DNA from: a virus | Lineage: Duplodnaviria > Heunggongvirae > Uroviricota > Caudoviricetes | IMG/VR virus record: IMGVR_UViG_3300044699_000054 | Coordinates: 1-64,000 of that record | Direction: 5' to 3' (one strand) | DNA: 64,000 nucleotides | Position numbers: made by a program | In this document: positions 12,001 to 15,000 of the stretch, in pieces | Numbering within the stretch: the stretch's first letter is position 1 | How the letters are laid out: the number at the start of each line of letters is the position of its first letter

Positions 12001-15000
12001 GGTGGCTGACCTGCTGGAGGCGGTTGGGGATGCTTTTGAGAGTGGAGAGCTGGAGTGGGGCCAGGGTGCCGCCAGGAGCTGGAGAGGCGAGGACTCAGAC
12101 GGGACCGCTCAGTGGGTCTTCTGCCTTATCGGCGGGCTCAGTCAGAGGAATCATCACAATGTGTCTATTTGGGAAGTGACTGGCGCTGTTAGCAGGCACC
12201 TGGGACTTATGGACCAAACCTTTATTGCACCCTGGAACGACAGGCCGGGTCGCACTGTGGACGAGGTCATTGATGCCCTCAAGGGCACGGCCAAGGACAT
12301 CAGGAACCAGTTAGAGCCTGGCGATGGATAACCGTGAGGGCAGCCACAGTTACATCGCTTTCGCTGGTCTAGCTGTGGCTCTCGGCTGCCCTGAGGATGC
12401 CGTGGGCACTCTGTGGGATCGGATGCTAGGCCAGGGTCTGCCTATGGACCCGCTGCAAGCTGTAGAGAGCTTCCGGCGGGAGCTGGCAGCCTTGAGAGAA
12501 GCGACAACACCAGGAGAGGGTGCGTAAGCGATATGGCCGAGGATCTTGTAAGTACTGATACTGCCCCTTGGGCGGACACCAGTACCTTCATTCCGACGTT
12601 CCCCCGATCAGCTACAGCGACTGAGCGCAACTATGCCCAGGAGATGCGGGAGCTGATCGATATGACAACGCAAGGGCGCTACACGTCCGCCAGCGCTGCC
12701 CAGGAGATCGTCAACTACCTGCGTGAGCATGACCCAGATCTGCTTCACGGCTGGCTCGACGCACAAGCTGTTCACTTCGTACGAGTGGCCATCTCGAACC
12801 GGGACCACTCTGCCCGCGCCTATAACCGCACCGCTGCATCCAGATCCGTATTCCGCAAGGCGGCGGAAGACTTCGATAATGGTGACGAAGCTCCATTGCG
12901 AAGCAACTTCCTGGACGAGGTCTACGTCATTGAGGCCGGAGTCAGGATGCCGCTACGCCAGATGACATCCGTAGAACTGTCCTTTGTTGCTGATGACTTC
13001 AGTCGCTCAGCCAAGGAGTCTCTGTGGCGAGAAGCCTTCCTGCGTGCGCTGGCTAAGAAGTGCGGCACTCGTACGGTGGAGCAGGTTTTCGATGAGGAAA
13101 CCATCGCCAAGCTGTGGATCTCGGTAGCAAAAGACTGACGATCGACATGTCAACCCGACCCCCTTCTTCCCAACCCGACATGCCACCCCGTGCCCCCCTG
13201 CATCCCGCTACCCTCCTGACTCCCCCGATCACCACCGGCCCCGCCCTCCACCGCTCTGTCCGACACGCCTACCCCGCTTGCCCCGCGCCGCGCCTAGTCG
13301 CCACAGCCCGCTCCGACGACCCAAGCCATTCCCTCCCTGTTCATCCCGACCACTCACCCCGACCCGGCTACGTCACGCCCCCGCCCAAATCGACAGGTCT
13401 ATCCGTACCCTCCGCGAGTCTCCCCTGCCCGACCACCCATCCCGTCCCGGTCATACACCCCAGCCCCGACTACCCTCCCCGCTCCTCATCCGCCAACTCG
13501 CCCACCCCGACTACCCTCCCCAGCGCCATTCGCATGCCTGCCCATCCCGACTACCCTGCCCCGCATCGCGTTCAACCCGGCCCGACAACTCAGACCGCCT
13601 CCGCTCCAGCCCAAATCCGACAACCCACGTTGCCCCACAAACCTCCCGACACCAGCCCGACTCGCCTACTCAGCCCGCGTCACCTACAGCCCATCCCCGA
13701 CAAGCCATCTCCCTACGCTCCGGCGCATCCCCTCACGACAGGCCGAGCCCAATCGCCCCGTCCACTTCCCGCTCCGACTGCCCGACGCCACCCGGATTCA
13801 TCCCATCCCTCTACGACCAACCAACCCATTGCGACCCCGATCCTTCCGCACCGACAACCCAGCTCTCCCCTCGCCATTCACTCACCGCTCCGACTACCCA
13901 GCTCAGTACGAGCCGCGATCATCCCCTCCCTTCTCGACTACCCGCCCCGACGCATCGCAACGCAACTACTGCCCACATCCGACGGCCCCTCCCAGGCCAC
14001 CCTCAATCAGGTCAGGCCTCCCCCTACCGACTCCCCCACCCATGTCTTCGCTTCCCATTTCACCCCGACCACCCGAGTCCTTGCCGCATCCACCCACTCC
14101 CTTCCCTGCCGACTACCCGGAGCCGGCCCGACTTCCTCCAACCCAACCCGACTGCCCCGCCCGTTCCAACACGGTTCTGCCCCGCCCGCGTCGACATCCC
14201 GACCCAGTCATCTAGTCCCATCACTCCACACCGACCACCCTCCCCATTACCTTGCCCCACTCACTCCACACCGACTTCCCCCGTCGAGTCTGCATCCGAC
14301 CGGTCCCCTCCCGACTAACCGCCCCAATTCGTCCCGCCACATCCCGACTAACCAAGCCCGCCCCGATCAACCCTTATCGACGCCACAACCCGTCCCGCCA
14401 CACGATCCGCCACCGATCAACACCTCCCGTCCCGACTACCTAACCCGACTCGCATCAACCCTTATCCCACCGACAGTGCATTCCCACCCTTGCAACAGGT
14501 CCACAAAGGAGAGAGAAAGAAATGTCCCGTCTGTTTGAGCAATATCGTGCAGAGGCGTATCCCTTCCGTTTCGACGGTTCGCTGTTAGTCGCCACTATTG
14601 CTGGTGGTACTCCCAGTGACCCTCGTGTTGCTGAAGGCTGGTTGAAGACCAAGCTGGGTCTCGACAAAGATGACATGATCCGGAACATGGTTGCTGAGAC
14701 CATGGTGGAGCGTGGTGTTGGCGCCGAGGAAGCCACTGAAATTGTAAATACCATGAAGAACCTGAATGGGTTCAAGCGCGATGACAAAGGCCTCTACATT
14801 GAAGGTCGCCAGCTGAAGGCCGCGCTCAAGGAAGCCATCTCCATTGCTGTTGCTGCTGGAAAAATTGAGCAGCGTGGATGGGGGAAGACGAACAAGTGGA
14901 TCCAGGGTTATTTCGCTGAGCACGTGTTCGTACTAGAAGACCGTCTGTACCTGGGTGTCGGCGAAGCCACTGGAATCAACCAGCGGTTCGTGCACACGCA

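Follow-up and report, generated by a model that had tools for sequence, protein, structure and literature searches.

The systems termed VIPR, for Viral Interference Programmable Repeat, are a newly reported form of RNA-guided DNA recognition, proposed to be older than CRISPR and described in two 2026 preprints (bioRxiv 10.64898/2026.04.26.720920 and bioRxiv 10.64898/2026.04.26.720927), the accessible part of whose text underlies all that we say of them here. Their parts are a small ancestral RAMP protein (Vipr), an accessory gene (vap) and guide RNAs called vrRNAs, which consist of 9–16 YNNGG repeats and a 3′ tail. In the Vipr filament there is one protomer per repeat, with GGY sequestered and NN presented, and the NN pair with double-stranded DNA in such a way that every third base is skipped (bioRxiv 10.64898/2026.04.26.720920). 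The targets are competing phages and prophages, and the systems themselves are mostly encoded in phages and prophages. Seven types are distinguished, with the variant repeats NNNGG, YNNNG and NNNNG, with "staggered" arrays that lack tails, and with vrRNAs of up to 30 repeats. The type II systems studied are those of Escherichia phage SUSP1 and of a Pseudomonas fulva prophage, and in SUSP1 the G-loop residues D177 and W178 read the two guanines. Here we analyse a stretch of 64,000 nucleotides of viral DNA (IMG/VR record IMGVR_UViG_3300044699_000054, positions 1 to 64,000; the whole stretch is called the window below), in which a C-rich tract at 13140–14520 directly precedes the gene of a RAMP protein. 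This tract is very probably the guide-RNA array of a VIPR system in a siphovirus-like actinomycete phage.

The finding is real and non-random, and its kind is already known. The initial annotation, which singled out the tract, had no described phage element to compare it with; the pentanucleotide-repeat guide RNAs in the available text of the preprints are such an element, and the locus is possibly a C-based variant of them.

A pentanucleotide lattice punctuated by GAC

The features that make up the module are as follows (array features are given without strand).

12533..13138, + strand: gene of a 201-aa product (protein A), a candidate for a vap-like partner that invariably sits just upstream of the array
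13143..14495: array of pentanucleotide repeats (candidate vrRNA array), in which the + strand reads (N N S Y C)k + GAC
13467..13582: three consecutive units starting CGACTACCC, of 41, 40 and 35 nt, the repeats pointed out by the initial annotation
14149..14191: clean example unit, CGAC + TGCCC CGCCC GTTCC AACAC GGTTC TGCCC CGCCC GCGTC, that is, 8 in-register pentamers, then GAC
14505..14516, + strand: Shine-Dalgarno region of the RAMP gene, AAAGGAGAGAGA, ~10 nt past the last array unit, as read from the sequence
14522..15241, + strand: vipr-like gene for a stand-alone Cas7-like RAMP of 239 aa, with helix-1 motif YIEGRQLKAALKEA and G-loop GIGASRSQGYG

Over 13140–14520 the base content is 51% C, 19% A, 15% G and 15% T, compared with window-wide averages of 28% C and 29% G, and the GC skew stays at about −0.55 throughout and is normal on either side, which bears out both the coordinates and the C-rich, G-poor character first assigned to the tract. 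CCGAC is found 35 times, always in the same orientation, against 10.3 ± 2.8 (maximum 20) in 300 dinucleotide-preserving shuffles, and its reverse complement GTCGG does not occur in the tract at all; the excess noticed originally is genuine, while the count of about 40 was somewhat high. Similarly, the 11-mer CCCGACTA(C/A)CC has 6 copies and not about 10, three of them spaced by 41 and 40 nt just as had been seen (at 13465, 13506 and 13546), and the remark that G is found almost only in CG dinucleotides was overstated, as 130 of the 209 G residues follow C.

These motifs sit on a lattice with a step of 5 nt. In the window tract the lag-5 autocorrelation reaches 1.134 for C (1.001 ± 0.025 in shuffles) and 1.657 for G (0.999 ± 0.152 in shuffles), the frequency of C is 0.82–0.86 at 8, 13 and 18 nt from every CGAC, and 21 of the 22 period-5 windows in the 64 kb lie inside the tract, with no other such region. 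An anchored profile pooled over 241 CCGAC sites from 15 loci gives C frequencies of 0.91, 0.89, 0.88, 0.76, 0.77, 0.78 and 0.67 at positions +9, +14, +19, +24, +29, +34 and +39 from CCGAC; in these pooled loci base composition is nearly uniform at the first two positions that follow a conserved C, and biased towards C at the next two (S and Y). The G autocorrelation has peaks of 1.2–1.4 at lags of 5, 10, 15, 20 and beyond, with troughs of 0.6–0.7 between them, and G is confined to the variable positions of the pentamer.

The (N N S Y C)k lattice is interrupted every 6–9 pentamers by the 3-nt mark GAC, and 5′ of each CCGAC it is offset by 3 nt. The array holds 44 CGAC marks and about 30 units of 29–55 nt (mostly 33–48 nt), plus short fragments. 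Unit lengths peak at 33, 38, 43 and 48 nt, i.e. at 5k+3, many perfect units consist of (NNNNC)8–14 and then GAC, and in the unit listing units cut at CGAC begin CGAC-[T/A]N-CCC. Apart from the lattice, the repeat content comes down to the 3-nt mark inside a consensus of ~10 nt, CCGACTACCC. On the complementary strand the same lattice reads G-R-S-N-N and so resembles NNNGG. A unit length built from the 6-nt, Cas7-like step was considered as well and is ruled out by the observed step of 5 nt. The lattice is easily overlooked: Tandem Repeats Finder picks up short local repeats only, and global Fourier analysis gives just a weak second-harmonic signal at 2.5 nt because indels break the phase, so that autocorrelation and anchored profiles are needed.

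The RNA of the + strand is almost structure-free, with a minimum free energy of −0.07 to −0.15 kcal/mol per nt compared with about −0.3 in the flanks. A (CCCNN)n/(GGGNN)n lattice is an ideal former of i-motifs and G-quadruplexes; the G-quadruplex potential attributed to the complement is real, and comes as a side effect of the CCC/NN lattice. Rfam searches at gathering thresholds returned nothing in the window, neither a hammerhead nor any known non-coding RNA (ncRNA), a tRNA scan of the window was empty, direct repeats of 24–48 nt with unique spacers were not found in the window either by Tandem Repeats Finder or in the unit listing, and there are no promoter-like or terminator-like sites inside the array. 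Two other stretches of the window have a skewed composition. One, at 11831–12120 (+), is G-rich (47% G) and lies over the start of a DUF6197 gene; pairing of the array with it was ruled out, as the matches are short and imperfect. The other, at 17421–17620 (+), is a short C-rich stretch (43% C) in the open reading frame (ORF) 17167–17736, which has Pro-rich PARP/TonB-like matches; it shows no 5-nt lattice and is therefore probably ordinary Pro-rich coding sequence.

The RAMP protein is homologous to SUSP1 Vipr

The protein encoded at 14522 has no match in Pfam, PHROG or NCBIfam. Its fold is a Cas7-like RRM with G-loop and thumb, its helix-1 motif is Csm3-like, its sole PADLOC matches are five weak ones, every one of them to a RAMP (Csm4, Csm3, Cmr6, Cas6 and Cas7), and its BFVD matches include a viral "Cas system-associated RAMP superfamily protein". 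The family is large and well conserved: the 90% database contains 1769 matches, and clustering at 50% identity leaves 571 clusters. In PLSDB plasmids the RAMP was not found.

For comparison with a characterised Vipr, the SUSP1 locus was located in KT454805 (vipr 28474–29061, vap1 28031–28471) and profiles were built for both families. Aligned by hhalign, the window RAMP family and the SUSP1 Vipr family match with a probability of 93.9% and an E value of 1.6e-7 over 136 columns, which span helix-1 and the G-loop. SUSP1 R179 aligns to R207, invariant in the window RAMP family. The guanine-reading residues are replaced: D177 aligns to A205, also invariant in the family, and W178 to S206, conserved in at least 90% of its members. 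P0323 was considered as the preprint seed X1U2U4 and rejected, as it turned out to be X0TDZ5.

The array accompanies the RAMP gene in relatives

Conservation was assessed in loci where the RAMP is at least 56% identical and at least 200 nt of upstream sequence are available, namely 3 IMG/VR contigs, 3 contigs from metagenomes or metagenome-assembled genomes (MAGs) and 11 actinomycete genomes or MAGs (Streptomyces, Nocardiopsis twice, Streptosporangium, Actinomadura, Streptacidiphilus, Pedococcus and others). In every one of them a C-rich, CCGAC-bearing array abuts the RAMP ribosome-binding site, ending there just as it does in the window, so that the link between the tract and the 14522 gene proposed in the initial annotation is upheld. 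Array length ranges from 0.21 to 2.6 kb, and near-identical strains differ by indels of units, which turn over fast. Synteny across the related loci is limited to protein A and the RAMP, in the order protein A, array, RAMP; one locus (L005) adjoins an integrase. More distant relatives, with RAMPs of 35–38% identity, also have C-type, CGAC-marked arrays on the gene-sense strand. On the best reading of these observations, the tract acts as nucleic acid and its function is linked to that of the 14522 gene.

Several of the individual loci deserve mention. In “Microcystis phage” Mae-JY09 (PP395641; L022, 5968–7231) a 36%-identical RAMP gene precedes a C-type array with CGAC punctuation, which extends as far as the right end of the genome record; with 73% GC, this part of the record (31746–38976) would be unusual if the host were Microcystis. 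A Kineosporiaceae MAG (5750–8470) encodes a RAMP of 38% identity with a short C-type array upstream and, downstream, a Cys-rich ORF at 6929–7926 that looks Cas4/RecB-like by eye, followed by a second C-type array at 8060–8470; this locus (L019) may represent a nuclease-associated VIPR type. The 103.8-kb contig IMGVR_UViG_3300037424_000906 begins inside an array (L003, 1–245); here the assembly either broke at the repeats or reached the end of a genome. Finally, a Streptomyces prophage (L028, 3001–4220) carries a SUSP1-like VIPR locus of 40% identity between portal and terminase genes, with one G-type vrRNA on the gene-sense strand (CNNGG/CNNNG, about 11 times, plus a hairpin tail), so that two different VIPR lineages exist in Streptomyces.

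Comparison with VIPR and other guide systems

Because of the SUSP1 profile match, the lattice and the setting, the window module belongs with VIPR by its protein, its locus, its repeats and its host. Like the type II systems of SUSP1 and the P. fulva prophage, it has a small stand-alone RAMP with profile-level homology to a characterised Vipr, a minimal locus in which a vipr gene is joined by one adjacent accessory gene, without cas genes or a CRISPR array, and adjoining non-coding tandem pentanucleotides whose three conserved positions alternate with two hypervariable ones. The setting in a phage or prophage is also shared, as the window has capsid, tape measure and endolysin genes, and the relatives are IMG/VR contigs and actinomycete loci. 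Unlike here, where the sense strand reads NNSYC, SUSP1 and its Streptomyces relative read YNNGG in sense and have a structured tail on each vrRNA. The scale is different as well, with about 30 units in the window and up to about 60 in a related locus (L004) versus 4 vrRNAs in SUSP1, and the array lies between two genes. Going by the accessible preprint text, the "staggered" arrays share with the G-rich strand of our array the NNNGG-like repeat, abutting units that lack tails, and a register shift at the unit boundaries.

The backbone of class 1 CRISPR-Cas, a filament of Cas7, Csm3 or Cmr4 on the crRNA, has in common with this module the Cas7-like RRM fold with G-loop and thumb, the expected single protomer per fixed RNA step, and many different units adjoining the gene. 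In contrast, the step here is 5 nt and not 6, the guide information would reside in dispersed dinucleotides, the repeats of 24–48 nt with unique spacers are missing, and each locus has one RAMP gene. Among the scanned neighbours there were no matches to cas1, cas2, Cas5, Cas6, a large subunit or other defence genes.

Two further systems invite comparison. TIGR-Tas, reportedly described by Faure and co-workers in 2025, is said to comprise tandem interspaced guide RNA arrays that are largely phage-encoded, and Tas proteins with a Nop domain; by these accounts it resembles our array in being a compact non-CRISPR phage guide array with short periodic units, and differs in having a Nop domain where we find a RAMP fold, as well as in array structure and pairing rule. 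In the leader RNA of trp, 11 G/UAG triplets spaced by 2–3 nt are read by the TRAP oligomer with a period of ~5 nt; the fold and function are unrelated, and the TRAP site is a single one of 53 nt with no guide role.

Alternative explanations

Could the tract instead be a cis-acting leader, a giant rut site that loads Rho and attenuates or times RAMP expression, with the repeats merely incidental? The + strand RNA does have the composition and low structure of a rut site, and the tract is inside an operon, directly 5′ of the RAMP ribosome-binding site and free of any detected terminator or promoter. However, a rut site needs no invariant C at each fifth base, no 3-nt punctuation and no variable dinucleotides, the array spans 0.2–2.6 kb with unit-wise turnover, and in Mae-JY09 it is downstream of the RAMP gene and cannot be a leader. 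We therefore consider this explanation improbable, although Rho loading could be a side effect of the array. Of the roles suggested in the initial annotation, an ncRNA and a protein-binding array come closest to what we find; the "structured" part of the suggested structured leader has to be given up, given the nearly structure-free sense RNA.

An equally small chance attaches to the proposal that the tract acts as DNA, either as an array bound by a phage protein in partition, replication or packaging, or as a G-quadruplex or i-motif structure. The same-orientation CCGAC motifs, the suitability of the lattice for such structures and the IMG/VR contig that begins inside an array would agree with it. 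But the only conserved partners are the RAMP, which has an RNA-binding fold, and a small helical protein, and no ParA/ParB, initiator or terminase genes are linked to the array across the related loci. Its position in the genome also varies, from beside the integrase in L005 to the genome end in Mae-JY09, and its conserved feature, a 5-nt lattice carrying variable dinucleotides like that of VIPR guides, is not a repeated operator of 15–20 bp. The centromere, sponge, packaging and recombination elements suggested originally likewise find no link to such genes in more than 20 related loci.

That the tract encodes a disordered protein rich in Pro, Ser, Thr and Arg is less probable still. The frame from ATG 13147 is open to 14536 (463 codons, end at 14538), so that it overlaps the start of the RAMP gene, and relatives have similar open frames. 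In L002 the corresponding frame closes with an overlapping ATGA, several loci show an ATG just after the upstream stop codon, and gene callers predict ORFs over the array. Long + strand ORFs are indeed found in all three frames, as stated initially (474, 346 and 128 codons), and the three frames together contain only 7 stop codons; stops are rare in every frame because only one pentamer register can hold them. Yet the long frame has no dependence on codon position (chi-square p = 0.46 in the window, 0.10 and 0.55 in two relatives), whereas the flanking genes, although shorter, give p = 1e-5 and 8e-11. The dominant period of the tract is 5 and not 3, the motif occurs in all three phases, and no protein family matches its translations. 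An apparently conserved N-terminus, MTTRP, was dismissed, being merely a repeat unit that carries ATG (ATGACTACCCG). A further argument comes from three other assemblies of near-identical strains, with RAMPs 99–100% identical, in which the arrays differ by indels of 44, 47, 5, 2 and 1 nt, none of which keeps the reading frame. Such unit and pentamer indels between near-identical strains mean that the tract is neither coding nor an assembly artefact, and the initial view that it is not a proline-rich gene, its repeat copies being out of register, stands. The single-nucleotide polymorphisms (SNPs) between the close strains amount to 17 in all and are therefore uninformative on pentamer positions. 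Arrays in three related loci (L004 2357–4989, L023 1162–2382 and L024 613–1830) have been gene-called as hypothetical proteins of 401–476 aa; such array gene calls are very likely errors propagated into protein databases.

An assembly or sequencing artefact, conceivable for low-complexity, strand-biased sequence and in view of one contig that breaks inside an array, is effectively excluded: the three other assemblies, which come from independent samples of JGI and ENA, contain the same array and differ in it by no more than a few SNPs and indels of units, and isolates of Nocardiopsis, Streptomyces, Streptosporangium, Actinomadura and Streptacidiphilus have analogous arrays in their genomes.

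A proposed mechanism and the choice of the guide strand

How would such an array work as a VIPR guide source? We propose that its transcript would be processed at the GAC marks, or close to them, to give about 30 short RNAs with 6–9 pentamers each. One RAMP protomer would bind each pentamer, coating the unit as a filament and sequestering the three positions that are conserved (S-Y-C if read from the + strand, G-R-S from its complement), while the two variable nucleotides of each pentamer would stay exposed. By analogy with SUSP1, the exposed dinucleotides would pair with the double-stranded DNA of rival phages or prophages, with one target base in three left out, and transcription would be silenced by the filament. 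Each unit would specify a different target, so the phage would carry a large anti-rival repertoire.

Which of the two strands is the guide is less clear, and we favour, by a narrow margin, the gene-sense, C-rich + strand. The orientation of the array is constant in all arrangements, and since the array abuts the ribosome-binding site there is no room for an antisense promoter between it and the RAMP start. The first 45 RAMP codons show no constraint at synonymous sites, which is weak evidence against an antisense promoter embedded there. The replacement of the guanine readers by A205 and S206 also points to the sense strand. In favour of an antisense, G-rich RNA is the fact that all vrRNAs characterised or described in the available preprint text are G-based. 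The composition of the + strand dinucleotides correlates with codon positions 1–2 of phage genes in antisense (r = 0.67; 0.05 in sense); the fit to sense codon positions 2–3 is equally good (r = 0.66), so this resemblance is only a hint.

Taken further, the sense-strand reading would make this large actinomycete clade a mirror-image VIPR, with C-rich sense guides of the form (NN-S-Y-C)6–9 that are cut at GAC from the operon mRNA and with the guanine-binding residues replaced. We put this forward tentatively, as a possibility that we would not yet bet on. A C-based code of this kind is not described in the accessible preprint text, with which alone it was compared.

Several observations weigh against assigning the tract to VIPR guide arrays, and some of them specifically against the sense strand. 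The type II hallmark of 9–16 repeats with a conserved structured 3′ tail is lacking: no such tail was found, the units are delimited by GAC alone, and with 6–9 pentamers they are shorter than those in the published text. Protein A has no detectable similarity to vap1, the only accessory protein with which it was compared. The conserved bases on the gene-sense strand are C (N-N-S-Y-C) and not the GGY of every vrRNA characterised in the available text, and both SUSP1 and the Streptomyces type-II-like locus are G-type on that strand; as the latter has G-type sense repeats with a hairpin tail, the polarity seen here is not an effect of host GC content. A C-rich, unstructured sense RNA of 1.4 kb upstream of the RAMP should be a strong Rho substrate and so awkward for RAMP expression. 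Target searches were negative, although they had little power: 91 long guides compared with ~300 kb of local sequence, with skips of 0–3, gave no excess over shuffled guides, and one scan of IMG/VR with a 20-base pattern gave 0 matches.

Genomic setting

The window comes from a siphovirus-like phage, in which the following features provide the context of the VIPR-like module.

11480..11700, no strand: AT-rich divergent intergenic region, ~33–40% GC, from composition and sequence
35021–36007, − strand: endolysin, amidase_2 domain at its N-terminus, collagen-like repeat at its C-terminus
43543–45648, − strand: tape measure protein
52488–54221, − strand: major capsid protein

The AT-rich region is likely the promoter region of a + strand operon to which the protein A gene, the array and the RAMP gene belong. 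Protein A consists of helices throughout and has only weak structural matches, of helix-turn-helix or homeodomain type. The capsid protein shares ~40% identity with its counterparts in Actinoplanes, Microbacterium and Gordonia phages, and INPHARED holds no near-identical DNA for the window. The collagen-like repeat of the endolysin also matches tail-fibre PHROGs. Beside the capsid gene a giant ORF of at least 2986 aa (55037–63997, − strand) without a Pfam match runs past the window end. In the late region a FAD-dependent oxidoreductase gene (29984–31000, − strand) and an NDP-hexose C-methyltransferase-like gene (32321–33574, − strand) may form a sugar-modification cassette, perhaps for virion glycosylation. 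A 45-nt tandem repeat (2.4 copies, 78% matches) is found at 7137–7245, within ORF 6697–7590.

Implications

A very abundant and highly conserved RAMP family in phages of Streptomyces-like bacteria thus carries a probable pentanucleotide guide array, which departs from the described systems in its scale (1.4–2.6 kb, tens of guides), in its opposite strand polarity and in its altered base-contact residues. The annotation of such arrays as hypothetical proteins of 400–480 aa needs correcting. Should the guide turn out to be the sense strand, the code of the repeats extends beyond G, which would widen the design space for programmable DNA binders. The mirror-image reading, if true, would amount to a second, C-based repeat code with 30–60 guides, ~10 times the SUSP1 locus. 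Mining the arrays could also yield a record of how phages have competed with one another in antibiotic-producing actinomycetes.

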